Below, in pieces: positions 31,874 through 60,319 of a stretch of 64,000 nucleotides of DNA (position 1 is the first letter of the stretch; the number at the start of each line of letters is the position of its first letter). The notes under the pieces are model-generated. The model was not told where the DNA came from. It searched no databases and saw nothing but the letters and a program-made list of their open reading frames with translations. Location: the IMG/VR virus record IMGVR_UViG_2671180724_000008. One strand, given 5' to 3'. Both the position numbers and the translations under genes were made by a program. This DNA comes from a virus. Taxonomy: Duplodnaviria > Heunggongvirae > Uroviricota > Caudoviricetes.

Positions 31874-32079
31874 TCGTGCGTAAAGGATGTTTCGGCTCTC
31901 TTATCGCTGCTTCTGAAACTGGTAAGGCTTGTCTGGTGTGTCCAGACAAGCCCGATTGTCACCAATCAGCAAAAGAAGTTGCGATTTCGATGCACGGGAA
32001 GTTCGTAGGCTTCCCAAATGACAAAATCAAAAAAACCAGAAAGGTAAAAACACATGAAGGCACTGATGGTTCGAACTGA
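31870..32079 (+). CDS. small Cys-rich hypothetical protein
   Basis: 69-aa ORF, ATGA-coupled to the upstream gene and overlapping the polymerase start. Contains CLVCPDKPDC. May be spurious. Confidence 0.25.
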   Translation: MIVRKGCFGSLIAASETGKACLVCPDKPDCHQSAKEVAISMHGKFVGFPNDKIKKTRKVKTHEGTDGSN

Positions 32080-35000
32080 CTTCTCACTTGGGGAGTCGGC
32101 TTTAAAAGCGGAAAACGCGGTGAAGATTGCCAGAGAAGCTGGCTACACCGCTGTAATTTCAGCAGATAGCATGAATATTGCGAGTGTTATTCCACTACAA
32201 CGTGCCGCTGGTGACGACATGGCGGTTATTTGTGGTGTGAAACTAAATATCGTTGATGATCCCACATACGAGTACCGGGCTAAACTTGCTAAAGAGTCTA
32301 AGGGATGTATGGAATCATTAGAGCGAGGACGTAACTACTCGTTTACCGCTCTAATTAAAAATGAGCAAGGATATCGCGACATCTGCGAACTAATGACGGT
32401 GGCCAACACACGAGAACAGTTCTACTTTGTACCGCGTCTCTCGCTCGAACAGTTGGTTTCTACATATGCCAAAGGCAACATCATCCTGCTCACTTCCGAC
32501 ATCGGTAGCGTGTTCCAACGCAACGATTTTGCAAAAATCATAAGCACACTGATTACAGCGGGTGGAAAAGACAACTTCTATAGTGTGGTTTATCCGCACC
32601 CTACCCCATTCTACGACCAGATTAACGTCCGGGCGATGAAAGTCGCCAGCGCATTGAAAATAGAGCCAGTGGCGTTCTATCCCGCTTATTACGAATCGAT
32701 CGACGATGCAGACATTAAAGACATTGCGCACATGGTTACGAACAACATCAAAATCGACCAGCCGCATCGTCTGCGTATCCCCCACCAGCGAGATAACGCC
32801 GTCAATGGTCGCCGCCATCTCCTTGAGGCTCTTAAAGCCTTCTCCGTTCGCATGGATGTGCCGGTAACAGCTGCAATGGCCTCAACAACGCAGGATACCA
32901 TTATCGATGCCTGCACATGGCGCTGGCATGAATTGCCGCCAGCACTGCCAAAGATGGCAGACGACGAGCCTGCAACGCTTATGAAACTGGCTGTTGCAGG
33001 GCTGCGTAAACGTCTTACCACAAAAGAGTTTGGCTACACACCACCTGCTTCTGAGAACAGGGTTTATGTTGAGCGGCTAAAGTACGAAATGGACACGCTG
33101 ACTCGCCTGGGATTTTGTGGTTACTTCCTGATGGTACGCGATCTGATGAATCACAGCCGTGAAACTGGCATTCCTGTCGGGCCTGGTCGTGGTTCCTCCG
33201 CTGGATCTCTGGTGGCATGGTGCATAGGCATAACCAACGTCGACCCAATCCGTCACGGTCTTCTGTTTGAACGTTTCATCAACCCTGAGCGTCTCGACTT
33301 GCCGGATGCGGATTTGGACTTCAGCCAGGCACGTCGCCATGAAGTGATCGAGTATTTGAATGAACGCTACGGCGAAGATTACGTTGCGGGTATTCCGAAC
33401 TTCACATATCTGGGCGCAGCCTCTGCACTACGTGACACCGCTCGTATTTATGGTGTGGAGTCCGCAGATATGGCGGTATCAAAAGAACTGAAGAACGTCG
33501 AGGATGATAGCCTTCCATTGGAAGAACTGCGCGAACAACTGGCAAGTCTCGACAAATACGCAACAAAATATCCTGATGCATTCAATGCAGCCTGCAAGTT
33601 ACAAAGCCTTATGCGTGGCTTTGGTAGACATGCGGCAGGGATGATCGTAGCAGGTGTTCCTCTGACAGAACGTACACCGGTTGAGCGCCGTGGTGACGCG
33701 CGTTGTATCGCATTTGACAAGCGTTACTGCGAGGCTATGGGCCTAATTAAGCTGGACGTGCTTGGCCTGGCAACTCTCGATTTGCTCGATAGTGCAAAAC
33801 GCTACATAAAAGAGAACACAGGTGAAGATATCAATCTTGATGCCATTTCTCTTGAGGATCGCAAGGTGCTGGATGGTTTTGCTGCTGGGTACACTCAAGG
33901 TGTTTTCCAGCTTGAATCAGGCCCAATGCGCAAGCTGCTTAAAGATTTAGGTGGTGGAATTGAGCCAATGAGCTTTAAAACGGTTGTTGCTACGACTGCG
34001 CTCTTCCGGCCGGGGCCAATTCAGTCAGGCATGTTGGATGATTATGTTTCTGTCGCCAAAGGCTTTATGACGCCGGAATCATTACACCCCGTTCTTGATG
34101 AACTTACCGCAGAAACAAATGGCGTGATTCTCTATCAGGAACAGACGATGAACGCGACTCGATTGCTTGCTGGCTTCACAATGGCTGAAGCTGACGGTGT
34201 TCGTAAAGCGATCGGCAAAAAAGACATGGAAAAAATGAAGAGCATGGGCGAGAAGTTCATCGTTCAGGCTCAAGCTGGCTGGATAGACGTTGAGCTGGAA
34301 GATGGCACTACACAGCGCATTCACCGTGCGGAACATTTTAAATGCGAAGACGGAACTCTGAAAACTGTCGAAGAGGCACTTGAGTACGGCGCAAAACTAC
34401 CTATAAACGCAGTACGCGTTACAGCGTCACATCCAGGGCTATCAGAGATGAAAGCGAAGGAGATCTGGACCGCATTCGAAAAGAATGGTGCCTACCAGTT
34501 CAACAAATCACACTCTGTTGCTTACTCCTTAATCAGTTATCAATCTATGTGGTTGAAAACTCATTATCCCGCAGAGTTTTTCGCTGCTGCTCTCACTATT
34601 CTTGGCGAAGATAAACACCAGGGGCTGGTTAAAGATGCGCTGACCTATGGTATTCGCGTATTGCCACCAGACGTTAACGTGTCATCTAACCGAATCGAGA
34701 TCCGCACGCTTGAAGATGGCAGCCAGGTGCTGTATGCGCCCTTCTCTGCTGTGAAAGGTTGTTCTGAGAATGGCTGCCAGGCCATCATGAGAGCGCGAGA
34801 AAAAGTTGGCGGCAAATTCGAGTCACTGGCGCAATTCGAAGAAGCTGTCGAGAAACGTGCCTGTAATAGTCGAGTGCGCGAATCACTGCAAAAAGTAGGG
34901 GCGTTTGCATCCATCGAGCCAGGTAGTCTGCCAGCAACTGATCCAGAGCGTCTCCGCGACCAAGCTGAATTGATGGGAAACCTTGTCATAGACGCAGTTA

Positions 35001-35572
35001 AAGCCTCACGTCCGTTTGAGATGAACCCCAAACGTTCGGCTGAGATTAACGTGCTCATGACACGGATGGCGGCTGAAATGGGATTAGGTGATGAACTAAT
35101 CCGCCCTAGCATTGGCATTAAGCCGAAAATCATGATCATTCTGGACAATGCAAACGGCAATGATGCTCGAACCGGTTACTTTATGGAGAACGGATACGAC
35201 GATTTTAAGGCCAAGCTGTTGACGGCTGGGGATTTGCGCATGGGCGATCTCTATGTCACAGGCGTTTGCAAAAAGGTGAAAGACAAAGAAAAGGACTACA
35301 CCAAAGACGAGATCGGCCAGTTCACCGACTTTATGCGTGAAGAGATCAATCTGGTGCGCCCGACCTATGTGCTGACGTGTGGCAGCCGGGCAACGGCATT
35401 GTTTAACAACAAAAACAAGCCATCCGATTTGGTCGGCAGGAAGGAGTACCTTCCAGACCTTGACGTTACTGTCTTTTACGGGTTTAACCCCAACATTCTT
35501 TACTTCAGACCTGAAGAGGGAGAACGACTAGAAGCGATATTAGCCGACGTAGCAGAAACCATTAAGACGTGA
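32054..35572 (+). CDS. dnaE: DNA polymerase III alpha subunit-like replicative polymerase (DnaE family) with C-terminal extension
   Basis: 1172-aa ORF. N-terminal PHP-like region, central Pol III alpha-type palm/fingers, and an extra C-terminal domain of about 200 aa. Start preceded by aaaggtaaaaacacATG. Confidence 0.75.
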   Translation: MKALMVRTDFSLGESALKAENAVKIAREAGYTAVISADSMNIASVIPLQRAAGDDMAVICGVKLNIVDDPTYEYRAKLAKESKGCMESLERGRNYSFTALIKNEQGYRDICELMTVANTREQFYFVPRLSLEQLVSTYAKGNIILLTSDIGSVFQRNDFAKIISTLITAGGKDNFYSVVYPHPTPFYDQINVRAMKVASALKIEPVAFYPAYYESIDDADIKDIAHMVTNNIKIDQPHRLRIPHQRDNAVNGRRHLLEALKAFSVRMDVPVTAAMASTTQDTIIDACTWRWHELPPALPKMADDEPATLMKLAVAGLRKRLTTKEFGYTPPASENRVYVERLKYEMDTLTRLGFCGYFLMVRDLMNHSRETGIPVGPGRGSSAGSLVAWCIGITNVDPIRHGLLFERFINPERLDLPDADLDFSQARRHEVIEYLNERYGEDYVAGIPNFTYLGAASALRDTARIYGVESADMAVSKELKNVEDDSLPLEELREQLASLDKYATKYPDAFNAACKLQSLMRGFGRHAAGMIVAGVPLTERTPVERRGDARCIAFDKRYCEAMGLIKLDVLGLATLDLLDSAKRYIKENTGEDINLDAISLEDRKVLDGFAAGYTQGVFQLESGPMRKLLKDLGGGIEPMSFKTVVATTALFRPGPIQSGMLDDYVSVAKGFMTPESLHPVLDELTAETNGVILYQEQTMNATRLLAGFTMAEADGVRKAIGKKDMEKMKSMGEKFIVQAQAGWIDVELEDGTTQRIHRAEHFKCEDGTLKTVEEALEYGAKLPINAVRVTASHPGLSEMKAKEIWTAFEKNGAYQFNKSHSVAYSLISYQSMWLKTHYPAEFFAAALTILGEDKHQGLVKDALTYGIRVLPPDVNVSSNRIEIRTLEDGSQVLYAPFSAVKGCSENGCQAIMRAREKVGGKFESLAQFEEAVEKRACNSRVRESLQKVGAFASIEPGSLPATDPERLRDQAELMGNLVIDAVKASRPFEMNPKRSAEINVLMTRMAAEMGLGDELIRPSIGIKPKIMIILDNANGNDARTGYFMENGYDDFKAKLLTAGDLRMGDLYVTGVCKKVKDKEKDYTKDEIGQFTDFMREEINLVRPTYVLTCGSRATALFNNKNKPSDLVGRKEYLPDLDVTVFYGFNPNILYFRPEEGERLEAILADVAETIKT

Positions 35573-35581
35573 TCCCATAAA

Positions 35582-35604
35582 CATGGCCTCTATGGCCATG
35601 TTTT
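35582..35604 (+). terminator. rho-independent terminator
   Basis: catggcc-tcta-tggccatg hairpin followed by tttt. Confidence 0.6.
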
Positions 35605-35697
35605 CCCTTATCCCCTCATATCCCCTATCCTCGAACTCCTTGCCTTATCATCACAATGATATAATCAATATAAAATGATAAGTAAAAAGGAAAGCAC

Positions 35698-36129: not shown

Positions 36130-36246
36130 TTTTTGATAGATAATAAGTAAGTACTGATCTATCATTTAACAGCTCGAAAGAGCCACGAATGAACGAAAGC
36201 CCAACGCGCATAGCGCCATCGGCCAAATCACAACAAGGAGAAACAC

Positions 36247-37269
36247 ATGTCTAAGACATTACTTGATTTGCTTAACAAAACTCGTGAAGACATTGCCGCC
36301 AAACGTGGCAAAAACACTGATTTGACCCGCTTAAAAGACGGCATCAACTATATCCGCATCTTCCCTAATAAAGACGACCCGAATGGTAAGTTCTTCCAGA
36401 CTTTTGGTATGCACTACATTAAGTATCAGAACGAGGAAGGTAAAGAAGCAACCAATGCTTATATTTGTGAGCAACATACTCACGGTCGCGCTTGTCAGCT
36501 ATGCGAAATGGTGATGGAAGGTCGCGCTCGTCACAAGGGTAACAAAGCAATGGAAGAGCGCATCGGTCAAATGCGTGCAACCCCTCGCTACCTGGTAAAC
36601 GGCATTCTTTCAACTCGTGAGGATTTCTCCGATGCAGAGAAATGTCAGTTAATCGAACTGCCTTCCACTGTGTTCGATGATATCTGCAAAGCAATCACCG
36701 AAGACATCGCTGACGATATCGGCAATCCATTAAGCAAAGAGGAAGGTTACGCATTTCAAATTAAGCGCACAGGCTCTGGTCGCGATACAGAATATGACGT
36801 TTCACCAAAACGTAAAGTCTTCAAAGGTGATATCGAAGATAAATTCTGGAACAACCAACATGACCTGATTGCTTATGTGAATCAGGCCGATGAAACTCGC
36901 CTTCTTGCGACAGTTCGCACTATGGGTCGTCTGATTGGCATCGCTGCACCAACTGCCACTGCATCGGCACCAGCAATTTCCTCAACAGCGAAAACATCGG
37001 CCTCTGCACTGCCTGGATTTGGCTCGATCACTGGTCATACGGAAGGAGCGACGGCTGTAGCAACCGCCCACACTCCAGCTTCTGAACCAACCAGTCTGGT
37101 TGATGAAGAAGTCCTGCGAGCAATGGAATCTGAATTTAAATCAGAAACAAGTTCTGCTGCCACATCAGCCAAAGAGTCTGAAGCAGACGCAACGACATCT
37201 GTAGCAGCCGCATCTGCGGCGGAAGATGAAGGTATTGATGACCTGCTGAAAGAACTGGAGTCTCTGTAA
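36247..37269 (+). CDS. single-stranded DNA-binding protein (T4 gp32-like) with acidic C-terminal tail
   Basis: 340-aa ORF. N-terminal region aligns by eye with gp32 (INYIRIFPNKDDPNGKFF versus gp32 AVIRFLPSKNDEQAPF) and carries a Cys/His cluster CEQHTHGRACQLC. Acidic C-terminus EDEGIDDLLKELESL. Confidence 0.6.
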   Translation: MSKTLLDLLNKTREDIAAKRGKNTDLTRLKDGINYIRIFPNKDDPNGKFFQTFGMHYIKYQNEEGKEATNAYICEQHTHGRACQLCEMVMEGRARHKGNKAMEERIGQMRATPRYLVNGILSTREDFSDAEKCQLIELPSTVFDDICKAITEDIADDIGNPLSKEEGYAFQIKRTGSGRDTEYDVSPKRKVFKGDIEDKFWNNQHDLIAYVNQADETRLLATVRTMGRLIGIAAPTATASAPAISSTAKTSASALPGFGSITGHTEGATAVATAHTPASEPTSLVDEEVLRAMESEFKSETSSAATSAKESEADATTSVAAASAAEDEGIDDLLKELESL

Positions 37270-37286
37270 TCCCATTACGTGACCAG

Positions 37287-37314
37287 TAAGGCGTCTACGG
37301 ACGCCTTACTTTTT
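37287..37314 (+). terminator. rho-independent terminator after SSB gene
   Basis: taaggcgtc-tacg-gacgcctta hairpin followed by ctttttgg. It lies inside the longest version of the next ORF, arguing for a later start. Confidence 0.6.
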
Positions 37315-37329
37315 GGAAGGAATGTACCG

Positions 37330-38274
37330 GTGAATTATCTCTTCGTAGATGGCAATAGCCTGGGTTATTACCACCAACAATCTGACAAATTGCACAACGG
37401 CGAAATGGAAGTACAGGCTGCTTTCGGCTTTGTTAAGAACGTCCGTCGTTATGCCTCCATCCTCCATGCCCGACCTATGATTCTTTGGGATGGATTTAGT
37501 GACAAGCGTCGCGACTTTTACCCGGACTACAAAGCAAATCGCGACGACGATCCTGATATGAAAAAGATGAAGGAAGGCTTTGCTGTCCAGAAGCCATACA
37601 TCCTCAAAATGATGACCGCGCTTGGTGTTAACCAAATCATTGCAAAAGATGCAGAAGCGGATGATCTGGCCGGGCTGCTGGTATCCCGCATGGCACCGCA
37701 GCCAACCGTTGAACACATCTATCTGTTAACAGGCGATAGCGACTGGCTTCAGTTAGTTCGCGAAAACGTAAGCTGGGTAAGCCTGCGTGAAGACGCCAAA
37801 AACAAGCAGGTTAATTTTGAGCAATTTGCGGAGCTGACAGGATTCGCCACGCCTCGCGCATTTTTGGAAGCAAAAGCATTACAAGGCGATAACTCGGACA
37901 ACATTAGCGGTGTTGGTGGCATTGGTGCTGGCGGCGCGAAAGAGCTGCTGCATGAATGGGGAAGTGTCGCAACGATGGTACGCGGCATCAACGACGGCTC
38001 AATCGTGGTTAATAAAGGGCGTCATAAGACCGCCTTCAACAAACTAGCGAAGAATGCCTTCAACGAGAAAACAGGCTGTCGAATGCTCGAAGCGTTCAAG
38101 AGAAACATCACGCTAATGAACCTGATTGAGACGAAGTTTCCGCCTACCGAAATCGAAACAATCAAAGGCAATCGTGACGTGAAAGCATTCGAGCAACTGT
38201 GCTACGAGCTGAATTTCCGTTCGTTCCTTGAAGACCTTGAAGTGTTTGTTCTTCCATTCGAAAGGTATTGCTAA
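37330..38274 (+). CDS. 5'-3' exonuclease / flap endonuclease (T4 RNase H / T5 D15-like)
   Basis: N-terminal LFVDGNSLGYY and downstream acidic clusters typical of the FEN/PIN fold. Start set at GTG 37330 after the terminator, with ggaagg RBS; the ORF track start is 37279. Confidence 0.6.
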   Translation: MNYLFVDGNSLGYYHQQSDKLHNGEMEVQAAFGFVKNVRRYASILHARPMILWDGFSDKRRDFYPDYKANRDDDPDMKKMKEGFAVQKPYILKMMTALGVNQIIAKDAEADDLAGLLVSRMAPQPTVEHIYLLTGDSDWLQLVRENVSWVSLREDAKNKQVNFEQFAELTGFATPRAFLEAKALQGDNSDNISGVGGIGAGGAKELLHEWGSVATMVRGINDGSIVVNKGRHKTAFNKLAKNAFNEKTGCRMLEAFKRNITLMNLIETKFPPTEIETIKGNRDVKAFEQLCYELNFRSFLEDLEVFVLPFERYC

Positions 38275-38540: not shown

Positions 38541-38542
38541 TC

Positions 38543-39616: not shown

Positions 39617-39621
39617 ACACA

Positions 39622-39645
39622 AGGCGTCCACAGGACGCCTTTTTT
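39622..39645 (+). terminator. rho-independent terminator
   Basis: aggcgtcc-aca-ggacgcct hairpin followed by ttttt. Confidence 0.75.
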
Positions 39646-39909: not shown

Positions 39910-39912
39910 GTA

Positions 39913-44487: not shown

Positions 44488-45022
44488 TCACCGCTGACAG
44501 CATACACAATCAACTACCGCTGATAGCATATCGAGAGTCTATCTTACCGCTCACAGCATACTTTACTCGATTTTTTACCGCTGACAGCATACTTAAGACA
44601 TTGCATGAATAATGTGTACCGGTATGGGTATAACCAGAACAAAATTACCGCTGGCAGCATACGAAGGTCTGACATATACCATTAATTACCGCTGATAGCA
44701 TATCCAAACAAAAATTCCTCAATAAAACACCGCTGACAGCATACGTTCTATCAGGGAGCAGCAGGCAATAAATGCCTTTCACTACAAGCAATCAGCGCAA
44801 TAGCAATAGAATGTTAGTGAGCGCAAACCTATATGGAATGCACTCTTCGAGGTTAGTAACCACTGGGGAGGTATGACAGAGCATTGAGTGGTGATAGATG
44901 ATTTACCGCTCACAGCATACGTTCATCTCACTATACCGCTGGTAGCATATCTTTAACCGTTCACAGCATACTTTTCAGAAAAATAGCCGCTGATAGCATA
45001 CATTTCACCGCTGACAGCATAT
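44488..45022. repeat. iteron array downstream of repA (12 copies, incA-like)
   Basis: Twelve direct repeats with consensus (T)ACCGCTGACAGCATAC at irregular 20-45 bp spacing, in two clusters (7 + 5) separated by about 140 bp. Confidence 0.85.
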
Positions 45023-46116
45023 CAAAGCAGTTTGAGACTATTGGAAAGGATCTCAATCATCTTGATATTTTCAGGCGTCAAATTCTGCGAAAGTTCGGTT
45101 ATCTTGTTGATAATGTTCTGTTTAGCATCAATTTCCCCGGCTTTCTCATCTGGTTTTTTGGGTTCGATGTCTTCAGGTTTTGGCGGTGCGACTTTAAGTT
45201 TTGGATTACGGCTGTGAATCTGGATATAGATCGACCGCCCTCGCTTAATCTCGCTGTATTCGAGATAGCCCAAATCTTGGAGAGCTTTTAAGCCGTTACG
45301 TATAGTCTGATTCTGCGAGCTGACATTCCTGCTACTCAAATTGAGTCGCGCACGCAATCGAGCAAGCGATACCGGCGCAGGCTTGGTTGGAAGACTTTCG
45401 ATGAAGGTGTACAGAGCCTGTGCTGTTTCTTTGCGTGGTAGCTTATTGATAACCTTTAACTGCAAAAGAACCTTATGGTCAAAGCGATATAGTTCGGCCA
45501 GCTTCGGTTCTGCATAGAACACCACCGTATCTTTCTGCTCGTTGTAGTCCACGCTATTGATGAGGTGCACCATCAGAAGCGAGATCTTGTTAGAGCCGTC
45601 GACGTTCTTTTCTTCATACGTTCTCTGGAAAGACAGAGTTGTACGCATGATCTTCAAAAGACTGTTTGTAAGCCGGTCGCGGAGTGTTTTGCGGATCTGT
45701 GACGATGGATAGCCACAAAACTTCGCAAATTTCGTGATGCTTAACTCGACACGACCGTTAGGTTCGCCGTATTCTGCCAGCGAACGCACAACGCCCACCC
45801 ACGTTTTGAAATCATGATCCATGTCGAGACGAGGACCGGTTATCTTGATGTCGGAATAGCCTTCAGAACGGGCTACTTCGAGCTGAACAAGCTCCTTTGA
45901 AGCATCGATTTCATTTGGCTTGTTACGCTTGCTGTATTTTGTCCCCTTGAGCGTGGGCACGAACAACCCCAGCCGCATCAACGCAATTGGTTGGACTGTA
46001 TTGTTGCTATTAGGGACAAGTTCCCCTGTGTACAATTCAAGGGAACCTTCTTCAAAGTTGTCGAGATTATCTTCTACTTCTTTGTTATTTTTACCTTTTT
46101 TATTTTTTGTGGACAT
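45022..46116 (-). CDS. repA: RepA-like iteron-binding plasmid replication initiator
   Basis: Minus-strand ORF flanked on both sides by iterons. Start set at MSTKNKKGKNNK (ATG at 46116-46114) so that the coding region does not overlap the upstream iterons; the track start is 46236. Confidence 0.7.
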   Translation of the reverse strand: MSTKNKKGKNNKEVEDNLDNFEEGSLELYTGELVPNSNNTVQPIALMRLGLFVPTLKGTKYSKRNKPNEIDASKELVQLEVARSEGYSDIKITGPRLDMDHDFKTWVGVVRSLAEYGEPNGRVELSITKFAKFCGYPSSQIRKTLRDRLTNSLLKIMRTTLSFQRTYEEKNVDGSNKISLLMVHLINSVDYNEQKDTVVFYAEPKLAELYRFDHKVLLQLKVINKLPRKETAQALYTFIESLPTKPAPVSLARLRARLNLSSRNVSSQNQTIRNGLKALQDLGYLEYSEIKRGRSIYIQIHSRNPKLKVAPPKPEDIEPKKPDEKAGEIDAKQNIINKITELSQNLTPENIKMIEILSNSLKLL

Positions 46117-46134
46117 GTGGACACCTTTGTCATT

Positions 46135-46237
46135 CAACCGCTGACAGCATACTTGATTTGCCGCTGGCAGCATACAAAAAACAGTTGGCAGCATACGGCG
46201 AACCGTTGACAGACTATCAATTACCGCTGACAGCATA
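46135..46237. repeat. iteron array upstream of repA (5 copies, origin/incC-like)
   Basis: Five copies of the same CCGCTGACAGCATAC-type repeat, two of them degenerate, in the repA promoter region. Confidence 0.8.
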
Positions 46238-47336: not shown

Positions 47337-48422
47337 ATGACTTTGCCATACGGCGTCATTTCTGACTGCCACTACCACAAATGGGATGCGTTCTCCACGA
47401 CGAACGCTGAGGGGCTTAACTCCAGACTTGAAATACAGTTGGAAGCAACGAAAGAAGCAGCCATCGCCATGAAGAAGGCCGGTTGTAAGTACATGTTGGT
47501 TGCCGGTGATACATTTCACGTCCGAGGAACTGTGTCCCCTTCTGTTTTGCATTACGTAACTGAAACGTACAAGTGGATTATCAACGAGCTTGATCTGACA
47601 GTAGTAATGCTGGCCGGTAATCACGATCTTGAAACCAACGATTCAGTATATAGCGCCAACGCAGCAGCATCGCTGAGTTCTATCGGCGTGGTAATCGTAT
47701 GTGGCAAGCGCCCACACTCAATAAAAATTGGTGATGTGACTGTCCACCTGATTAGCTGGCGTAACAATCATGCGGAGCTTATCAGCGATCTGAAAGCATT
47801 ACGTAAGAGCGTAGAAGGTGATAATCATGACGTTGTTATCCATACATCCATTAACAAAGCCATTCCAACAATGCCTGACGTCGGTATCGATGCGCAGGAG
47901 TTAAAGGATATCGGCTTTCGTCTCGTGCTTAGTGGGCATTACCACAACCACAAAGAGGTCATTCCTGGTGTTATCAGTGTCGGTGCGCTGACCCATCAAA
48001 ATTGGGGAGATGTTGGATCTCTGGCTGGTTACATGATCGTAAACCCGGACGGCAGTTTCAGTCACTACGAAACCAGTGCGCCTAAATTCATTAACCTGGA
48101 AGATTATGTTGCCGATGACCAAATTCGCGGCAACTACGTGCGTTTCCGCGCCGTAATTGAGAACGATGAAGAAGGCATTAAGTACCAGAATATCCTCAAA
48201 ACAATGGGCGCAAAAGGTGTCGTGTGCAACTTCATCCGTAAGTCATCAATGATGGAAGGGACAGCAAGCACAACGGAAACCAGCAAAATCGATAGCTTGG
48301 GAGAGTCGGTATCTGCTTATTGCAAGATTGTCCACGATACTGACGGCGGATTTGATCTGAGCAAGTTGGATATTTTGTGTCAGGAAATCCTCACCGAAGC
48401 GGAGAGTTCGGAGGCTGTGTGA
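47337..48422 (+). CDS. SbcD/Mre11-like nuclease (calcineurin-like phosphoesterase)
   Basis: 361-aa ORF with phosphoesterase motifs DCHYH, GDTFH and GNHD. Start context acaaaggaaaaacacATG. Confidence 0.65.
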   Translation: MTLPYGVISDCHYHKWDAFSTTNAEGLNSRLEIQLEATKEAAIAMKKAGCKYMLVAGDTFHVRGTVSPSVLHYVTETYKWIINELDLTVVMLAGNHDLETNDSVYSANAAASLSSIGVVIVCGKRPHSIKIGDVTVHLISWRNNHAELISDLKALRKSVEGDNHDVVIHTSINKAIPTMPDVGIDAQELKDIGFRLVLSGHYHNHKEVIPGVISVGALTHQNWGDVGSLAGYMIVNPDGSFSHYETSAPKFINLEDYVADDQIRGNYVRFRAVIENDEEGIKYQNILKTMGAKGVVCNFIRKSSMMEGTASTTETSKIDSLGESVSAYCKIVHDTDGGFDLSKLDILCQEILTEAESSEAV

Positions 48423-48651: not shown

Positions 48652-50568
48652 ATGAAGTTTTTAAAGCTCCAGGTTGAGAATTTTATGGCTATCGCCAGCG
48701 CGGAGGTCGAGTTAGATCAGCGTGGTTTAGTGCTAATTCAGGGCGTTAATAGTGATGATAGTTCCGCATCAAGTAATGGCTCTGGAAAGTCAACTCTAAT
48801 GAATAGCCTGATGTGGTGTCTTTATGGCGAAACAGCTCATGGTGTGAAGGGTGACGATGTGTTGTCTACCGACCATGAAAAGAACTGTCGTGTTGCAGTA
48901 ACCATCGAGGATGAAGGCAAGAGATATGCGATCATTCGTCACCGTAAACACAAAGAGTTCAAAAATCGTCTTATCGTTCGTGGTGAAGATGGCGATATGA
49001 CGAAAGGCAAAGATGCGCTGACGCAGGAGTTCGTCGAGCGTCTGATCGGTGCATCTAAAGAGGTTTTCATGGCTTCCATCTATGCGAGCCAAGAAGCTAT
49101 GCCAGATTTACCTGGAATGTCCGACAAAAACCTCAAAACCATCGTAGAAGAAGCCGCTGGCGTTGACAGACTGACACGCGCCTACGCTATTGCTCGTGAG
49201 CGAGCTAATGCAGCTGCCGCACGTATGGATGTGGTTAAAACCAAATTGGAGTCGACAATCTCGACCATTGAGGCAACACAGTCAGAAATTGAGTCCGCGA
49301 AAGCCTCCTCTGAATCATGGGAACAAGAGCGTTCTAAACGTTATGACGATGCCTTGGCTGGGCTGGCAAGTGCCGAAGTTGAGTTAACGGAAGTTGAACT
49401 TGAGATCCGCACTCTTCCCGAACAGATCCGTGATACCGAGAAGGCAATCGAAAGTGAGCGCAAAAAGTTAGCCTCAAAAGAAGAACATGACGCCAAGTTG
49501 CTCAAAGTGCGTGGTGCGATAACTGATATTCGGGCAAGCATCAAAGCTACAGAAAATAGTCAGGCTGATGCAATGAGCCGCGCGCGCAATTTTAAGACTA
49601 AAGCAGAAGAGGTTGGTACTAAAGTGGGATCGCCATGCCCTACTTGTGGCAAAGCCTACTGCGAAGAAGATCTATCAACGGTGAAGGAGAATTTCATTGA
49701 ACAAGCACGTCAGGAAATTGGTCAGGCGAAGACACTTGCAGAGGCAATGGCTAAACACAAAACGAATCTTGAGAAAGCGTTAAGCATTGAGTCTGCCCTT
49801 GTTAAAACGACACCTGATGTAACGGCTATCATTGCACGGATTGAAGAGCTTACTAAACAACTCTCATCTTTGCGTCATCGTGAGAAGGAGGTTGTTGCTA
49901 TTGAGTCTCTTGTTACTCGTGCTCGTGCAGAGGTAGATCGTATCTCAAAAGAGGTTAATCCGTTTATTGCACTTATCGCCAGACACGAAGATAACCTGGC
50001 ATCCAGTAAGTCTACCTTCAAGTCCTTAAAAGATGAGTTGAAGGCTATTCAGGAACAAACGTTGCTATTGGAAAAAGCTCGTCAGGTCTACTCTCCTGCC
50101 GGGGTGCGTTCTCATATTTTGACGTCTGTTACGCCTTTCCTGAATACACGTACAGCTGAGTATCTCAATACGTTGTCTGACGGGAATATTACTGCTGAGT
50201 GGTCGACGATGGATGTCACTAAAAAAGGTGAGTATCGCGACAAATTCAACATTAGTGTGCAGAAGAAAGGTTCAAGTAAGTCGTTCCAGACCCTCTCTGG
50301 TGGTGAGAAGCGGAAGGTTCGCATTGCGTGTTCTTTGGCATTGCAGGATCTGGTTAGTAACCGGGCGAGTAAAAACATCGATTTGTTTATCGGCGACGAA
50401 ATTGACGATGCACTCGATACAGCCGGTCTTGAACGCCTCATGGGTATTCTGGAGTCCAAAGCTCGCGAGCGAGGTACTGTGCTGATTATCTCCCATAAAG
50501 AGATGAAGTCATGGTTCCGGGAAACTATTACGCTGGAAGTTAAAGAGGGGCGCAGCTATGTCGTTTAA
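48652..50568 (+). CDS. SbcC/Rad50-like ATPase
   Basis: 638-aa ORF. N-terminal Walker A NGSGKST, central coiled coil with CPTCGK zinc hook, C-terminal signature LSGGEKRK and Walker B LFIGDEID. Confidence 0.65.
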   Translation: MKFLKLQVENFMAIASAEVELDQRGLVLIQGVNSDDSSASSNGSGKSTLMNSLMWCLYGETAHGVKGDDVLSTDHEKNCRVAVTIEDEGKRYAIIRHRKHKEFKNRLIVRGEDGDMTKGKDALTQEFVERLIGASKEVFMASIYASQEAMPDLPGMSDKNLKTIVEEAAGVDRLTRAYAIARERANAAAARMDVVKTKLESTISTIEATQSEIESAKASSESWEQERSKRYDDALAGLASAEVELTEVELEIRTLPEQIRDTEKAIESERKKLASKEEHDAKLLKVRGAITDIRASIKATENSQADAMSRARNFKTKAEEVGTKVGSPCPTCGKAYCEEDLSTVKENFIEQARQEIGQAKTLAEAMAKHKTNLEKALSIESALVKTTPDVTAIIARIEELTKQLSSLRHREKEVVAIESLVTRARAEVDRISKEVNPFIALIARHEDNLASSKSTFKSLKDELKAIQEQTLLLEKARQVYSPAGVRSHILTSVTPFLNTRTAEYLNTLSDGNITAEWSTMDVTKKGEYRDKFNISVQKKGSSKSFQTLSGGEKRKVRIACSLALQDLVSNRASKNIDLFIGDEIDDALDTAGLERLMGILESKARERGTVLIISHKEMKSWFRETITLEVKEGRSYVV

Positions 50569-51310: not shown

Positions 51311-51880
51311 ATGAGTAAAAAAATCAGCGTAGTTGGTGTTGATCCCTCAATGAGCAACTTTGGGCTTGCTGTGGGCACTTTAGACCTTGAAACGGACGAA
51401 CTTGAGATTCACGGCCTTACTCTTGTTGAGACTAAAGCGGGGAGTAACAAAAAGACAGTTCGTGTGAACAGTGACGATCTGCGCCGTGCCAGTGAAATAT
51501 GGCGTGTTGCGAAGCCAATCATTGATAAGGCAAATATGGTTTTTTGTGAGCTACCGGTTGGGAGCCAAAACTCTCGTTCGCAGACGTCTTACGGTATTTG
51601 TATCGGTGTACTTGCGTGTGTGGATAAGCCATTGATCCAGGTCACTCCAAACGAAATTAAGCATTTTGTCGGCAATAAACTTACTACATCGAAAGAAGAG
51701 ATTATCCAGTGGGCTACGAAAAAACACCCTAAAGCACCGTGGCTGCGTCGTAAGCAATCTGGACAGGATGTTCTCGTGAACAAAAACGAACATTTGGCTG
51801 ATGCGGTGGCTGCCATCCATACCGGTATGCAAACGGATCAGTTCCGCCAGGTGCGCGATGTTCTTAAGTCTCTCATTTGA
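51311..51880 (+). CDS. RuvC-like Holliday junction resolvase (putative)
   Basis: 189-aa ORF. N-terminal ISVVGVDPS resembles the RuvC/YqgF catalytic Asp motif. RBS aaggag upstream. Confidence 0.5.
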   Translation: MSKKISVVGVDPSMSNFGLAVGTLDLETDELEIHGLTLVETKAGSNKKTVRVNSDDLRRASEIWRVAKPIIDKANMVFCELPVGSQNSRSQTSYGICIGVLACVDKPLIQVTPNEIKHFVGNKLTTSKEEIIQWATKKHPKAPWLRRKQSGQDVLVNKNEHLADAVAAIHTGMQTDQFRQVRDVLKSLI

Positions 51881-54269: not shown

Positions 54270-54374
54270 CATATGGTGGGGGGTATCCCCACCTTCTCTT
54301 TGATTTGTAAGCCTTGTTTAAACAAATAAGATAACAACTTGTTTAAACACATCAAAAAGCAAAAGGAAAAACAC

Positions 54375-55517: not shown

Positions 55518-55594
55518 ACCGATACAAAGCATTATGTGGCCTGGCAACGCTGGGCCACAATGGATCACAAGAATTAAGAAGGAACAAAACTAGC

Positions 55595-56464: not shown

Positions 56465-56533
56465 TTGTAGGTAGTTATCTATCTGTGTATATTGCATTGG
56501 CGCGTTAAATTTCTGAAACAACTATTCGTTTTT

Positions 56534-56558
56534 GGTGGCCTATGGCCACCATTTTTTT
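56534..56558 (+). terminator. rho-independent terminator
   Basis: ggtggcc-tat-ggccacc hairpin followed by attttttt. Confidence 0.75.
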
Positions 56559-56635
56559 ATCTATCTGGTCTTGTTCGCTCAATAAATGTAAACTCACATA
56601 ATGAATAAGTAGTTACTTATCTTTGTGAGGTTTTT

Positions 56636-57739
56636 GTGTCACTCCTTTTGAATCGTGAGCATACGAACGGTCAGGTAACAAACGCATCGTATGCAAAAGT
56701 TATTGAGACGGTGCTTAAAAGCGGCGTGCAGGCTGATGATCGCACAGGCACTGGTACTTTAAGCACCTGCTACGTTCCCTCTTACTACATGCTTACTGGT
56801 GGGACTGTGCCGCTTATTTCTGGAAAGGCGGTAAATCTTAAGCCACTACTTGTCGAACTTGAGTGGTATCTGAAAGGCACGGGCAACATCCAATTTCTCA
56901 AGGATAACGGCGTTAAGATTTGGGATGCATGGGCCGATGAGAATGGCGATTTGGGGCCGGTTTACGGTAAGCAGTGGCGTCGCTGGGAAGATACCCGCAT
57001 CGTGAGCCATAGTGAGTATCTGAGCAAGATCGATACGTTCCGTGAACGCGGGTACAAAGTCGAGGGATACCTGGGTATCAGTGAAGATCGCGTAGTGCTG
57101 TCCCGTGAAATCGATCAGCTACAGCGTATTGTCGATACACTGCGCACGAACCCTACCGATCGTCGCATCATGCTTAACGCATGGAACGTAGGCGAGCTTG
57201 AGGATATGAAACTGCCACCTTGCCACTTTGTCTTCTCTTTGTGGAGTCGTGAGCTTGATTTTGAAACCCGTTTAACGATGGCAACTGACATTGGTCTTCA
57301 ACACAGTCGCCTCGGTTACGAGTCTATCTACACCAAGATGCTATACGATCTGGAGATGGTCGGCAGTGTTACTGAAACTGAACTGGATGAACTTGGAATC
57401 CCCAAACGCATCCTCAACTCCTGCCTCGTACAGCGTAGCGTAGACACTTTTGTTGGTATGCCATTCAATATTGCTGGTTATGGCATTCTCACTCATTTTC
57501 TCGCGAAGATTACGGGTCACATGGCCGGTGCCTTTGTGCATTTTGGCTTTGACGTGCATTTGTACAATAACCACATGGAAAGTGTGTGTGAGCTAATGAA
57601 ACGACAGGCTCCAGAGCATTCAGATCCGGTCGTTATTTTCCCTCATGAATGGTCTGAGCTGGATGATTTCAAATGGGACGATATTCTGATTCTTGGCTAT
57701 GACCCTCTACCGTGGATCAAGGTTCCAGTGGCGGTGTGA
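56636..57739 (+). CDS. thyA: thymidylate synthase (ThyA family) with internal insertion
   Basis: GTG start. Conserved DRTGTGTLS, RRIMLNAWN and catalytic LPPCHFVF motifs plus QRSVDTFVGMPFNIAGY. At 367 aa it is about 100 aa longer than E. coli ThyA, mainly from an insertion after the catalytic Cys. Confidence 0.8.
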   Translation: MSLLLNREHTNGQVTNASYAKVIETVLKSGVQADDRTGTGTLSTCYVPSYYMLTGGTVPLISGKAVNLKPLLVELEWYLKGTGNIQFLKDNGVKIWDAWADENGDLGPVYGKQWRRWEDTRIVSHSEYLSKIDTFRERGYKVEGYLGISEDRVVLSREIDQLQRIVDTLRTNPTDRRIMLNAWNVGELEDMKLPPCHFVFSLWSRELDFETRLTMATDIGLQHSRLGYESIYTKMLYDLEMVGSVTETELDELGIPKRILNSCLVQRSVDTFVGMPFNIAGYGILTHFLAKITGHMAGAFVHFGFDVHLYNNHMESVCELMKRQAPEHSDPVVIFPHEWSELDDFKWDDILILGYDPLPWIKVPVAV

Positions 57740-57740
57740 T

Positions 57741-58154
57741 ATGGCAAGAGGTATGTATGTCTTATGCGAAATTGAAGGTGTGCTGGCAAATACCAGCCAT
57801 CGTAAATCTGTATCTGACGCGGATGCAGGCCAGCTCATTGCCGGTGATGAACTCATTTTCCCTACCAGCCGTATGTTGCGTGGTTTTGCTCGCTCAGGGG
57901 CTGAAGTGGTGCTTATCAGTAGCCGCTCTGAAACCCTTGAAGCGCCCACTAAACGATGGCTGAAAGATTTTGGTGTTGATTACGACTGGCTTCATCTCGT
58001 ACCGAATGGCATCAGTTATGAGAAGCATATTAAGCGCACATTAGCGGAGCATAAAGGCGATCTGCTTATCGCTGCGCTGGTGCACGATCCTCGACTCCGT
58101 GCCGCTTTAGCTGACTCTCATCATAGACCGGTCATCTATGAGGTGGGCAAATGA
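57741..58154 (+). CDS. HAD-fold hydrolase-like protein (putative nucleotidase-like; atypical motif I)
   Basis: Start at the ATG immediately after the thyA stop. Motif YVLCEIEGVLA resembles HAD motif I DxDGVL but with Glu in place of Asp. Confidence 0.3.
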   Translation: MARGMYVLCEIEGVLANTSHRKSVSDADAGQLIAGDELIFPTSRMLRGFARSGAEVVLISSRSETLEAPTKRWLKDFGVDYDWLHLVPNGISYEKHIKRTLAEHKGDLLIAALVHDPRLRAALADSHHRPVIYEVGK

Positions 58155-58627
58155 AGATGATAGCTGCTGTTGGCCGTAATTATGAGATCGGTAGAGCGAA
58201 CGAACTGCCCTGGCGTTGCTCTACCGATCTGAAGCTATTTAAGAGACTCACCAAAAACGCCACTGTCGTTATGGGACGTAAAACGATGGAAAGTCTCAAA
58301 CGCCCTCTTCCAGAGCGTCATAATCTCGTTTTGACGCGCTCTCATGGCTTTGTACCAAATGGATTCTACCCTGCTGGTGTGGATGATGTGTTGCGATTAC
58401 CAGAGCCTGTGTGGGTGATTGGCGGGGAACAAATTTACTCGCTATTCATGCCGCATGTTGAAGAGATTTGGCTCTCCCACATCGGCGTTGATGTACCAAA
58501 CGCTGATGCATTCTTCCCGGCAAGCATGATGCGTAACTTAGGCTTTGTGCCTGTTGAAACAGCTTATACCCAACGAGCCAGCGAGGAAGAGCCTGGCTTT
58601 TCGCAGATCGTATACAGAAGGTCGTAA
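58151..58627 (+). CDS. folA: dihydrofolate reductase
   Basis: 158-aa ORF with N-terminal MIAAVGRNYEIGRANELPW and VVMGRKT motifs typical of DHFR; translationally coupled to the upstream gene. Confidence 0.8.
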   Translation: MKMIAAVGRNYEIGRANELPWRCSTDLKLFKRLTKNATVVMGRKTMESLKRPLPERHNLVLTRSHGFVPNGFYPAGVDDVLRLPEPVWVIGGEQIYSLFMPHVEEIWLSHIGVDVPNADAFFPASMMRNLGFVPVETAYTQRASEEEPGFSQIVYRRS

Positions 58628-59271
58628 TGGATTACCGGATTGGGATCACTGGTGCTCAGGGCAGTGGGAAAACAACCCTGGCTAAATATATCGACAAACA
58701 TTACGGAATCCCTTACGTGGATGCTGGTGTCGGAAGTTTGATGAGCCGCCTCGGTGTTCGAGTAGGTGAGTCTATGCCTCTATATGAGCGGCTTCAGATT
58801 CAAATGGAAATAGCAAAGCATATAGAGCTACTTACGCGTGGTGTTGAAGGCTTTGTTATCGATCGTACACCTGCTGATGTTATGGCCTACACGTTGGATT
58901 TGGTCGGCCATACAAATGAAGAGCGGTGTATTGAGTTAGCCCTCGATATCGAAAAGTTTTGCCACAAAACTGCCATTTCAAACTTTAACGCCATTGCTGG
59001 CTTACGCCCGGGAGTCGCTCTCTCAGAGCGAGATTACTTGCGATCACAACGAGCATCATTAGACCGTCTGTATGTTGCTCGTATTGATGCGTTGATGTGC
59101 GGGGAACTGACAAAAATTCACCTGCATCCGCAAAGGGGAGATCTGCAAACCTTCGTCGTTTCCAACCGATATCGCACGGTTGAAGCAAGAGCCAGATCAG
59201 TGATGAGAATGCTAGATAACGCTGTAGAAAAGATAGAAAACCGGTTCTGTGGCCGAGTGACCGTTCATTAG
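58627..59271 (+). CDS. P-loop nucleotide/nucleoside kinase (putative dNMP kinase)
   Basis: 214-aa ORF with Walker A GITGAQGSGKTT at the N-terminus; sits in the nucleotide-metabolism cluster. Confidence 0.45.
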   Translation: MDYRIGITGAQGSGKTTLAKYIDKHYGIPYVDAGVGSLMSRLGVRVGESMPLYERLQIQMEIAKHIELLTRGVEGFVIDRTPADVMAYTLDLVGHTNEERCIELALDIEKFCHKTAISNFNAIAGLRPGVALSERDYLRSQRASLDRLYVARIDALMCGELTKIHLHPQRGDLQTFVVSNRYRTVEARARSVMRMLDNAVEKIENRFCGRVTVH

Positions 59272-59332
59272 AAATTGTTCGCCTCTTCTACATTGCGACA
59301 ATAAAACTCTCAAAATGGGTTAAGGATAAAAA

Positions 59333-59752
59333 ATGTTTAGTGAAATGTTGCTTGAAGATGAACTGGATCGGAAAACAACAGAGGCTTTGATTCGTGTGGC
59401 GGACGAACATTCTCGGTCGTTTATGAGCGATCGAGAGGCTCGTCTGGCTATTCGTGCCATATTCGAAACTGCGCAAGGGCTTGTTGGCGCACAAGTAGGT
59501 GAAGCCATTAACATCGCCATGTCTCAGTTCAGTGAAGGCAGTAAAAAGCCTCTGTTTCCTATGCATTTGATGCTGGCTGGTGGCACGGTGCTTTATATCT
59601 CTGTTTGTCTGGATAGCAACCAAATCAATATTCTCAACACTGCGTCAGGTAAGTGGAAAGATCCGATTGTCTGTGAAACCAGTGAAGAAACTTTGAAAAA
59701 AGCGGCTCAATTTGTACGTAGCGCACTACTTAAGGGCGCTAAGAAGTTGTAA
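59333..59752 (+). CDS. hypothetical protein
   Basis: 139-aa ORF with RBS aaggat upstream. Confidence 0.4.
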   Translation: MFSEMLLEDELDRKTTEALIRVADEHSRSFMSDREARLAIRAIFETAQGLVGAQVGEAINIAMSQFSEGSKKPLFPMHLMLAGGTVLYISVCLDSNQINILNTASGKWKDPIVCETSEETLKKAAQFVRSALLKGAKKL

Positions 59753-59761
59753 GGAGTTCTG

Positions 59762-60319
59762 ATGACAACGATTGTTGCAGGCATCGATATCGAGTCTACG
59801 GGACTGGATTTCCTTGCTGGTCATAAAATTATTGAAATCGCAATTACCCGCTATGAACTGGAGACACAGAGACATATTGATAGTCTGGAGATGCGTTTTA
59901 ACCCTCGCAGAAACATAGATCCGAAAGCTCAAGCCGTTCATGGCATTTCATTGGAACAGCTCGCAGCTGAACCTTTGTTGTCAAATCATGCCAGCGAAAT
60001 TGGCGCTTATATGGGGGCATGTAGTGCGTGGATTGCTCATAACGGCGAAGCGTTTGATATACCATTTATTCGGCACGAGTTTTCAGGGTATGGAGTAAGA
60101 CTGCCAGACGTTCCTGTTATAGATACTATGTTATCGGGATTGTGGGCCACAGAAGACGGTAAACGCCCCCGCCTTGAAGAGTTGGCCTTCTCTCTTGGCT
60201 TTATATACGATCATGCCAAAGCACATAGTGCCTTATATGACACAAACTTAATGATGCAATGCTTCTTTAAGGCACGTAATAAGTACGGATTTTTTAAATT
60301 ACCCTCTGAAATTGTGTAA
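59762..60319 (+). CDS. DnaQ-like 3'-5' exonuclease (DEDDh family)
   Basis: 185-aa ORF with Exo I GIDIESTGL, Exo II AHNGEAFDIPF and Exo III H..LYDT motifs. Confidence 0.7.
   Translation: MTTIVAGIDIESTGLDFLAGHKIIEIAITRYELETQRHIDSLEMRFNPRRNIDPKAQAVHGISLEQLAAEPLLSNHASEIGAYMGACSAWIAHNGEAFDIPFIRHEFSGYGVRLPDVPVIDTMLSGLWATEDGKRPRLEELAFSLGFIYDHAKAHSALYDTNLMMQCFFKARNKYGFFKLPSEIV

Follow-up and report, generated by a model that had tools for sequence, protein, structure and literature searches.

A DnaE-type polymerase with a predicted glycosylase-derived C-terminal domain in the replication block of an SSU5/pHCM2-type phage-plasmid

Introduction

The OB fold is present in at least 97% of C-family DNA polymerases (PMC3919608). 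A variant in which it has been replaced was described in 2014 by Timinskas et al. under the name 'DnaEX'. It has the domain order PHP-Pol3-(HhH)2-UDG, with a uracil-DNA glycosylase (UDG) of archaeal type (family 4) taking the place of the OB fold and the C-terminal domain (CTD), and it was reported as a further polymerase in certain Yersinia pestis and Salmonella enterica strains (PMC3919608). This occurrence is consistent with elements of the pMT1/pHCM2 type. Here we analyze a polymerase of the same architecture that is encoded in a 64,000-nucleotide stretch of DNA from a virus of the Caudoviricetes (IMG/VR record IMGVR_UViG_2671180724_000008), called the window throughout, together with the replication and recombination genes that surround it. 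The 2014 paper noted the architecture only. To this we add the loss of catalytic residues throughout the UDG-like family, a conserved motif in the linker, split alleles of the gene and its conserved synteny in phages.

A family-4 UDG domain is also found on the replicative polymerase PolA of certain phages. In the N4-like phages it is inactive and has been proposed to act as a processivity module, and in the SPO1- and SP15-like phages it is active (PMC10201439; bioRxiv 2025.03.26.645540).

The SSU5/pHCM2-type phage-plasmids are a well-described group (PMC7969092). In nucleotide sequence the polymerase gene of the window is 98.4%, 96.6% and 93.5% identical to its counterparts in the Escherichia phages CMS-2020a, PhiR41_1 and Cyrano, and 85% identical to that of Salmonella phage SSU5, and on the basis of these identities we conclude that the window is part of a phage-plasmid of this type. 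Gene order is shared with the group, and genes for partition (ParA) and plasmid replication (Rep3) are present. In gene order and content we see no essential difference from the four named relatives; RecA differs in length from that of PhiR41_1 and Cyrano (see below), and accessory genes differ. In the curated European Nucleotide Archive annotation of Cyrano the helicase, primase, ligase, Pol III alpha, SbcCD, RecA and RuvC are already named, with labels that include 'UvsY recombination mediator', 'SSB T4 gp32-like' and 'Exonuclease, PolIII subunit epsilon' (SSB, single-stranded DNA-binding protein). The plasmid copy number reported for Cyrano is about 5.5 per cell. Thus both the element and the domain architecture of its polymerase are already known.

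Results

The polymerase has 1172 amino acids (aa), with PF02811 (PHP), PF17657 and PF14579 in canonical order and PF07733 (DNA_pol3_alpha) matched at E = 1e-73. It scores 631.8 bits against TIGR00594, where the cut-off is 434, and DnaE chains in the Protein Data Bank (PDB) match it at E = 1e-109 to 1e-122. The catalytic aspartates D418, D420 and D568 align with D401, D403 and D555 of the E. coli enzyme. By these alignments the protein is a DnaE-type polymerase with intact catalytic residues. It shares with E. coli Pol III alpha the core of PHP, palm, thumb, fingers and (HhH)2 domains, and in both systems the metal site of the PHP domain is incomplete and the DEDDh exonuclease is a separate protein. 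In our reading of an alignment with Mycobacterium tuberculosis DnaE1 (5lew), eight of the nine metal-ligand positions of the PHP domain are replaced, with H-x-H changed to A-L-M, TDH to ADS, GVE to GVK and NDCH to YPAY, and one conservative change of D to E. Intrinsic proofreading by the PHP domain is therefore not expected.

The difference from E. coli Pol III alpha lies at the C terminus, where the window polymerase has neither the OB fold nor the tau-binding domain. The alignment to DnaE structures ends around aa 953, with the end of the (HhH)2 domain, and about 218 aa follow that have no Pfam match above threshold. Since the total length is that of E. coli DnaE (1172 and 1160 aa), this part of the protein replaces the OB and tau-binding domains and is not an addition to them. 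A preliminary description of the window, made from the sequence, had noted an extra C-terminal domain of about 200 aa with no assigned function. An unannotated segment of this size does exist; it is a replacement, however, and it is homologous to the family-4 UDGs, in an architecture published in 2014 (PMC3919608).

Taken alone, the C-terminal domain matches the Pfam UDG family (PF03167) at E = 0.0018, with 18.8 bits against a cut-off of 24.3, and the structures 4zbx, 1l9g and 1ui0 in the PDB at E = 0.06-0.24; the matches are weak, and consistently to family-4 UDGs. TIGR00758 matches the domain with 34.7 bits, which is significant homology that lies below the trusted membership threshold of 125.3. 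The C-terminal fragment of a split allele of the gene (P0001) is named "uracil-DNA glycosylase" by NCBI, and three distant full-length relatives (P0100, P0113, P0114) carry a precomputed PF03167 match. A first homologue search with the domain returned fragments only. An exhaustive search of 1.84 billion representatives gave 141 clusters, including 81 with E < 1e-10, and a profile built from 26 diverse members finds the UDGs of S. tokodaii (4zbx, E = 2.5e-22), T. maritima (1vk2, 1.8e-20) and T. thermophilus (1ui0, 1.6e-16), and UdgX at about 1e-13. None of the DnaE chains in the PDB is matched by this profile. AlphaFold2, run on the family alignment, gives a model with a pLDDT of 89.2 and a pTM of 0.84. 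Its top matches in Foldseek are the family-4 UDGs 4zbx, 1l9g, 1vk2 and 1ui0, with E around 1e-10 and TM scores of 0.66-0.79, and the predicted fold is the alpha/beta/alpha fold of these enzymes. Profile searches and predicted structure together indicate that the C-terminal domain is derived from a UDG and stands in place of the OB fold and CTD.

A divergent form of the ordinary OB and tau-binding region would lie in the same place in the protein and give a similar total length. We find no Pfam OB match in the polymerase, however, and hhalign of the family against aa 930-1160 of E. coli DnaE returns a probability of 0.2%; a tau-binding domain was found neither in that comparison nor with the family profile against the PDB. 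By contrast, family-4 UDGs are retrieved at E = 1e-16 to 1e-22 and the predicted fold is that of a UDG. We have rejected the ordinary DnaE region as an identity for this domain, and regard it as extremely improbable. The preliminary account had named such a correspondence as its own refutation, and on this point it stands unrefuted.

In family-4 UDGs and UdgX the histidine of motif B and the asparagine of the TNAV motif are hydrogen bonded to uracil, and the glutamate of motif A activates the nucleophile (PMC10359453). We counted the residues at these positions in 92 members of the polymerase-linked UDG-like family. The position of the uracil-contacting asparagine is G1070 in the window; it is S, A, G or T in 87 of the 92 and asparagine in none. 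At the position of the motif B histidine there is N1145, in the sequence NPN, and the family has N in 59 members, S in 16, T in 13 and H in one. The arginine of motif B is not conserved. The glutamate of motif A corresponds to D1031 and is aspartate in 85/92. Motif A as a whole reads LDNAN in the window in place of GE(A/G)PG, with a family pattern of x-D-x-P-(N/T/S) in which the proline is present in 75/92; the window copy lacks both this proline and the acidic (EE) pair that follows. There is no CxxC in the window domain and the Fe-S cysteines are missing from the SSU5 clade, and in the family cysteine does not rank with the six residues most often found after the conserved lysine (the KC position). 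The window domain therefore has neither the motif A of family 4, nor the TNAV asparagine and HP(S/A) of motif B, nor the four cysteines of a 4Fe-4S cluster. Since the uracil-contacting asparagine and histidine have been replaced throughout the family, excision of uracil in the canonical way is unlikely.

Three observations count against a complete loss of function. The family strongly keeps a pocket of its own, comprising D1031, Y1067 (90/92), T1069 (91/92), K1073 (87/92) and P1146 (90/92). The N-terminal CxxC pair and the third Fe-S cysteine are kept in about 40 of the 92 relatives. Lastly, the family-2 MUG enzymes function with asparagine in motif B. A residual or altered catalytic role, or one in ligand binding, may thus be retained, and the conservation of Y1067, T1069, K1073 and P1146 makes it probable that a binding function survives.

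It could be argued from the same residues that the domain is an active glycosylase of altered chemistry or specificity, which would perform base excision or base sensing during replication in the manner of the SPO1- and SP15-like UDG-PolA fusions. The acidic residue at the motif A position, the conserved Y-x-T, lysine and N-P-G, and the cysteines kept in a part of the family would fit this, as would the existence of active UDG-PolA fusions (bioRxiv 2025.03.26.645540) and the genes for thymidylate synthase, DHFR and a MazG-like protein nearby. Yet the asparagine and histidine required for hydrogen bonding to uracil and stabilization of the leaving group (PMC10359453) are gone from essentially the whole family, along with conservation of the motif B arginine, and the window copy has in addition lost the motif A proline, the EE pair and all the Fe-S cysteines. 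Modified bases were not in evidence, and none were looked for. We therefore consider an active glycosylase unlikely. A parallel is provided by the N4-like UDG-PolA, in which a family-4 UDG domain is likewise attached to a phage replicative polymerase and has likewise lost its catalytic residues. The UDG-PolA fusions carry the domain at the N terminus of an A-family polymerase. In the window it stands at the C terminus of a C-family polymerase, where two canonical domains have given way to it. The two kinds of fusion appear to have arisen independently.

The flexible linker between the (HhH)2 and UDG-like domains contains a conserved motif (Table 1), with the family consensus R-[LR]-K-D-Q-x-E-L-[ML]-P-G-L over the same 92 members. 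R966 is conserved in 87, Q970 in 85 and L973 in 71, with M or L at 974 in 74 and P at 975 in 77. The confidence of AlphaFold2 is lower in this region (pLDDT 59-71). Clamp-binding motifs have the form QL[SD]LF, and that of E. coli alpha is QADMF. In both polymerases a motif of glutamine, any residue, an acidic residue and two hydrophobic residues follows the HhH domain, and QAELM (970-974) is a plausible binding motif for the beta clamp.

Neither a clamp nor a clamp loader was found in the element. Searches by phmmer with E. coli DnaN and DnaX-gamma and with T4 gp45, gp44 and gp62 gave no match at E ≤ 10 when run against all open reading frames (ORFs) of 60 aa or more from the window and from complete Cyrano; T4 gp46, used as a positive control, found the SbcC-like ORF at E = 5e-15. 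None is listed in the Cyrano annotation, and PHROG assigned the unassigned ORFs near the replication genes to families of unknown function only. Thus where E. coli Pol III has beta, tau, gamma and delta, the phage-plasmid encodes none that we detected. An ORF of 260 aa that follows the primase gene (19028-19810) was considered as a divergent clamp and rejected; it has close homologues only, with no counterpart in the lytic Pseudomonas phage nickie.

The replisome had been described in the preliminary account as self-contained, and with no sliding clamp or clamp loader detected this is unsupported. One might still suppose that it works without host replication proteins, its processivity being intrinsic or conferred by an unrecognized phage factor, since the phage encodes its own helicase, primase, polymerase, exonuclease, SSB, FEN, RNase H and ligase, and several conserved hypothetical proteins are encoded beside the helicase and primase, one of them the 249-aa product of an ORF upstream of the helicase with a homologue in nickie (E = 1e-18). 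Set against this are the failure to detect a clamp or loader of bacterial or T4 type, the absence of the 260-aa ORF from nickie, and the conservation in the polymerase of a motif resembling those that bind clamps. Independence of the host seems to us improbable.

The 249-aa ORF (15556-16305, phrog_2500) and another of 160 aa (19866-20348, phrog_5055) flank the helicase and primase genes. Nickie has a homologue of each in the same place, that of the 160-aa protein at E = 3e-9, and no sequence match was found in the PDB for the 249-aa protein. The two are candidates for a helicase loader or other replisome accessory.

The DnaQ-like exonuclease keeps the DEDDh motifs ExoI, ExoII and ExoIII, which read in the translation as D9-I-E11 (DIESTG), H-N-G-E-A-F-D99 and H155-x4-D160 (HSALYD). 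It is matched by NCBIfam epsilon models at E of about 1e-20; NF004316 gives 71.5 bits against a cut-off of 196, over positions 6-167 of the 234 in the profile. The protein ends at aa 185, and comprises the catalytic domain of epsilon without the C-terminal alpha-binding tail that is present in the E. coli protein of 243 aa. Orthologues of about 40% identity are found in other phages that have DnaE-UDG, namely the Rhizobium RHEph10 and B1VFA groups, the Pseudomonas Nickievirus and Stenotrophomonas phages. This co-occurrence is consistent with a functional pairing of exonuclease and polymerase. The reported mixture of a bacterial-type DnaE and separate DnaQ-like exonuclease with partners of T4 type, that is gp32, SbcCD, FEN and RNase H, and an ATP-dependent ligase, is borne out.

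The SSB encoded downstream of the polymerase is a member of the gp32 family, matching the whole of PF08804 (profile positions 1-208 of 208) with 219.5 bits against a gathering score of 26.8. Its combination with a Pol III-type polymerase had been thought unusual. We scanned IMG/VR with the UDG-like domain, which gave 163 confirmed loci, of which 80 were analyzed; the counts given here are restricted to loci whose flanking DNA is long enough. Downstream of the polymerase gene we find the UvsY-like gene in 74/77 loci, gp32 in 65/66, FEN in 53/54, RecA in 46/46 and SbcD in 38/41, and upstream of it the CobS-like gene in 46/46 and the CobT-like gene in 39/40. In nickie the order is helicase, primase, ligase, CobT, CobS, dnaE, (UvsY-like), gp32, exonuclease, RecA, SbcD, SbcC, RuvC, nrdA, nrdB, thyA and DHFR, with gp32 matched by PF08804 at E = 6e-26. 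A broad lineage, with lytic phages of about 110 kb among its members, thus keeps the block CobT-CobS-DnaE(UDG)-UvsY-like-gp32-FEN-RecA-SbcDC. A C-family polymerase together with gp32 is a fixed signature of this large phage lineage, not a peculiarity of the element.

The ORF that follows the polymerase gene is annotated as UvsY in Cyrano. When its family is compared with T4 UvsY by hhalign the alignment is collinear and weak (E = 0.029, probability 1.7%); there is no Pfam match in 22 members of the family, and no sequence match in the PDB for their profile. It is possible, judging from its sequence, that the protein is a recombination mediator. The conserved part includes the motif R-[RK]-D-M-[LI]-V-Q. 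The length varies greatly, from 143 aa in the window to 426 aa in the nickie homologue (L006 20754-22034), and on viral contigs the homologues are often frames of 250-400 codons that have long N-terminal extensions of low complexity. The RecA of the window is 357 aa long, and those of PhiR41_1 and Cyrano have 779 aa (L001 26496-28835, L010 5065-7404). This points to an insertion of about 420 aa, an intein or other insert, in the recA genes of these two relatives that is not present in the window.

The likeness to T4 is clear for the gp32 family, and extends to the SbcC-like protein, which resembles gp46, and to the UvsW and UvsY annotated in Cyrano; the gene for UvsW lies beyond the part of Cyrano that is equivalent to the window. 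On the other hand the polymerase is of family C whereas T4 gp43 is of family B, the recombinase matches bacterial RecA in Pfam, and the gp45 clamp and gp44/62 loader of T4 were not detected in the window.

The genes for the CobT-like protein and the CobS-like ATPase (AAA_5, MoxR-type) lie immediately upstream of the polymerase gene in the window, in nickie and in the viral loci counted above. We saw no CobN in the window. The function of cobS and cobT in phages is uncertain in the literature (PMC11288001), and their fixed link to the replicase gene suggests a role related to replication. PADLOC gave nothing meaningful for the CobT- and CobS-like proteins or for an SPFH protein.

This neighborhood bears on another possible role for the UDG-like domain, which might be mainly an adaptor between proteins that replaces tau binding and couples the polymerase to the helicase and primase, to gp32 or to the CobS/CobT-like pair, much as poxvirus D4 acts in A20-D4. 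The polymerase has no tau-binding domain and no tau gene was detected, the phage supplies a helicase and primase of its own, CobS/CobT and gp32 are in strict synteny with it, and the D4-A20 processivity factor offers a precedent (PMC4889955). The conserved residues, however, fall on the motifs of the former nucleotide-binding pocket, and there is no obviously new surface. A domain that is mainly an adaptor is in our view a doubtful proposition.

The gene map (Table 1) is based on Pfam, PHROG and NCBIfam scans, and the annotations of PhiR41_1 and Cyrano agree with it. The inventory of replication genes listed in the preliminary account is correct and all of them exist in the window, although the helicase, primase and ligase genes lie upstream of the region 32054-60319 in which they had been placed, and that for RNase H lies downstream. 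The inventory is not new, the same set being already annotated in Cyrano. The name of the primase rests in addition on the annotation of DNA primase in PhiR41_1 and Cyrano. The region 32054-60319 also contains genes that had gone unmentioned, for the Rep3 initiator, ribonucleotide reductase, thymidylate synthase, DHFR, the MazG-like protein and the UvsY-like ORF.

Table 1. Features of the window, with their coordinates and the basis of each assignment
Feature	Position	Strand	Basis
Tail genes	before ParA
ParA	13435-14103	+
DnaB-like replicative helicase	16349-17689	+	DnaB_C E = 3e-13; DNA helicase in Cyrano
DnaG/Toprim-type primase	17699-18952	+	DNAG_N 24.2 bits, Toprim_2 21.0 bits, both below gathering score
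ATP-dependent DNA ligase	20345-21667	+	DNA_ligase_A_M E = 4e-13
tRNA cluster	23257-24258
Integrase	26387-27490	+
CobT-like VWA protein	28434-30542	+	CobT_C E = 3e-82
CobS-like AAA_5 ATPase	30638-31873	+	AAA_5 E = 2e-15
DnaE-type family-C DNA polymerase (Pol III alpha), 1172 aa	32054-35572	+	PHP, DNA_pol3_alpha, fingers, HHH_6
PHP domain, degenerate metal site	32054-32923	+	PHP E = 8e-13
53-aa clade-specific fingers insertion	34280-34438	+	polymerase aa 743-795
(HhH)2 domain	34649-34918	+	HHH_6 E = 2e-16, aa 866-955
Linker motif R966-L-R-D-Q970-A-E-L-M974-G-N-L977, candidate for beta-clamp binding	34949-34984	+	family conservation
Family-4 UDG-like domain, aa ~990-1172	35021-35569	+	TIGR00758 E = 1.4e-8, profile, AlphaFold2, Foldseek
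Weakly UvsY-like ORF, 143 aa	35698-36129	+	phrog_231 E = 1e-4
T4 gp32-type SSB	36247-37269	+	PF08804 E = 6e-65
5'-3' exonuclease / FEN	37279-38274	+	5_3_exonuc_N E = 1e-24, 5_3_exonuc E = 7e-12
RecA-type recombinase, 357 aa	38543-39616	+	RecA E = 2e-42
Rep3-family plasmid replication initiator	45022-46236	-	Rep3_N E = 5e-9; RepA in Cyrano
SbcD-like nuclease subunit, T4 gp47-type	47337-48422	+	Metallophos, AAA_23 and SMC_N in the SbcD/SbcC pair
SbcC-like, T4 gp46-type	48652-50568	+	as for SbcD-like; T4 gp46 match E = 4.9e-15
RuvC-like Holliday junction resolvase	51311-51880	+	phrog_159 E = 3e-57 only; no Pfam match
Ribonucleotide reductase, MazG-like, thymidylate synthase, phosphatase-domain protein, DHFR	between RuvC-like and DEDDh exonuclease
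DnaQ-like DEDDh 3'-5' exonuclease, 185 aa	59762-60319	+	RNase_T E = 1e-20
Dam	61471-62064	+
RNase H	63009-63653	+	RNase_H E = 1e-44

The fingers of the polymerase contain an insertion of 53 aa that is found neither in Taq DnaE nor in relatives of 54% identity or less. The window allele is uninterrupted. In many relatives from Klebsiella, Enterobacter and Xenorhabdus the gene is split within this insertion, at aa 787/788, into an N piece of 787 aa and a C piece of 389 aa, with a NUMOD4/HNH_3 homing-endonuclease gene lying between them. In one such allele (L004, 4001-8253) the N piece aligns with aa 1-776 and the C piece with aa 788-1170. Of the 73 viral loci that are informative, 19 are interrupted at this site, and C pieces of about 390 aa are frequent among the 141 homologue clusters. 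The intervening free-standing HNH_3 genes have at least three architectures (NUMOD4-HNH_3-HTH, NUMOD3-HNH_3 and HTH-HNH_3), and invasion by homing endonucleases thus appears to be recurrent. An intein at the insertion was considered and rejected; 53 aa is too short, and pieces of 787 and 389 aa account for the 1172 aa with no surplus of the size of an intein. The split-intein site of cyanobacterial DnaE (motif FNKSH), which we take to lie some 25 aa downstream of the polymerase split site, is not at the same place. Three database proteins of 879-1075 aa (P0103, P0109, P0124) have the N-terminal domains of the polymerase joined to a RecA domain, which suggests fusion of dnaE to recA in deletion derivatives that have lost the UDG-like domain, the UvsY-like ORF, gp32 and FEN.

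Several genes elsewhere in the window can be remarked upon. Adjoining the ParA partition gene is one for a GIY-YIG protein of 255 aa (14515-15282, - strand), which matches the LEM-3-like GIY-YIG family at E = 6e-7 and, among the anti-phage models of PADLOC, PD-T4-3 at E = 1.6e-23. Between positions 24001 and 26000 there is an island with a GC content of 0.364, compared with about 0.46 elsewhere. It contains an ORF of 444 aa (24454-25788, - strand) with a borderline match to putAbiC (E = 2.9e-4, 21.7 bits against a cut-off of 22.0) and no match in PADLOC; this is likely to be an acquired accessory or defense gene. Between the ligase and integrase genes there are four tRNA genes, Asn-GTT, Tyr-GTA, Thr-TGT and Ser-TGA, and at the equivalent place Cyrano has three annotated tRNAs (Asn, Thr and Ser). 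The thymidylate synthase ORF (56636-57739) encodes 367 aa, and the Pfam ThyA profile is matched in two stretches. A typical ThyA has about 264 aa, and the window protein probably contains an insertion. Its orthologue in Cyrano is labeled 'ThyX', which disagrees with the match to the ThyA family in Pfam.

Discussion

The region serves an SSU5/pHCM2-type phage-plasmid in replication, recombination and nucleotide metabolism, and we think it fairly probable that it works as a whole in the following way. In the plasmid state replication would start from the Rep3 initiator. During lytic growth the element would turn to recombination-dependent replication in the style of T4, using gp32, RecA, the UvsY-like mediator, the gp46/47-like nuclease and RuvC, joined by the UvsW of the Cyrano annotation. 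The fork would be driven by the DnaB-like helicase and the primase of the phage. The host clamp loader would place the host beta clamp on the DNA, with the polymerase made processive through Q970-A-E-L-M974, and proofreading would be performed in trans by the DnaQ-like exonuclease. Okazaki fragments would be matured by FEN, RNase H and ligase. The UDG-like domain, occupying the place of the OB domain, would no longer excise uracil and is more likely to be a module for DNA binding or tethering, as proposed for the inactive UDG of N4-like PolA. We propose that the tau-binding domain is dispensable because there is no tau subunit for it to bind.

Some parts of this scheme are weakened by other results. 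QAELM is not the exact equivalent of E. coli QADMF (920-924); MAFFT places it in the column of E. coli residues ~892-900, about 28 residues earlier, and on this alignment the two motifs are only positionally analogous. Highly divergent clamps would escape phmmer. The assignment of the UvsY-like ORF, judged on the comparisons given above, is weak. The gene for the DnaQ-like exonuclease lies 24 kb from that of the polymerase, and with this distance and the missing epsilon tail a physical coupling to the polymerase is conjectural.

A more speculative idea, to which we give a low probability, is that the UDG-derived domain is a working module and not a relic, and that it allowed a C-family replicase to drop its OB and tau-binding domains. 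It might act as a device for gripping DNA or scanning the template, or as a docking point for the CobS/CobT-like pair. Archaeal PolB reads ahead for uracil in the template, and in its DNA-gripping form the module could be the counterpart in bacterial viruses of that activity or of poxvirus D4. If the pair does dock at this domain, these AAA+ and VWA proteins would be an unrecognized replisome accessory, and if the domain is a working module the replisome of this widespread lineage of phages would be of an architecture not described before.

With the element and the polymerase architecture already known, the interest that remains is in the role of the UDG-like domain, the possible use of the host clamp, the CobS/CobT-like neighbors and the recurrent splitting of the polymerase gene by endonucleases. 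The replicase is an uncommon natural experiment, in which a Pol III alpha has given up its OB and tau-binding domains in favor of one derived from a glycosylase. The gene block is conserved in plasmids of enterobacteria, in lytic phages that infect Pseudomonas, Rhizobium and Stenotrophomonas, and in numerous viral contigs of environmental origin. Phage-plasmids of the SSU5 type are frequently met in clinical Enterobacteriaceae, and resistance genes are often found on phage-plasmids as a class. The manner in which the SSU5-type elements are copied in two modes, as plasmid and in lytic growth, is therefore of practical interest.

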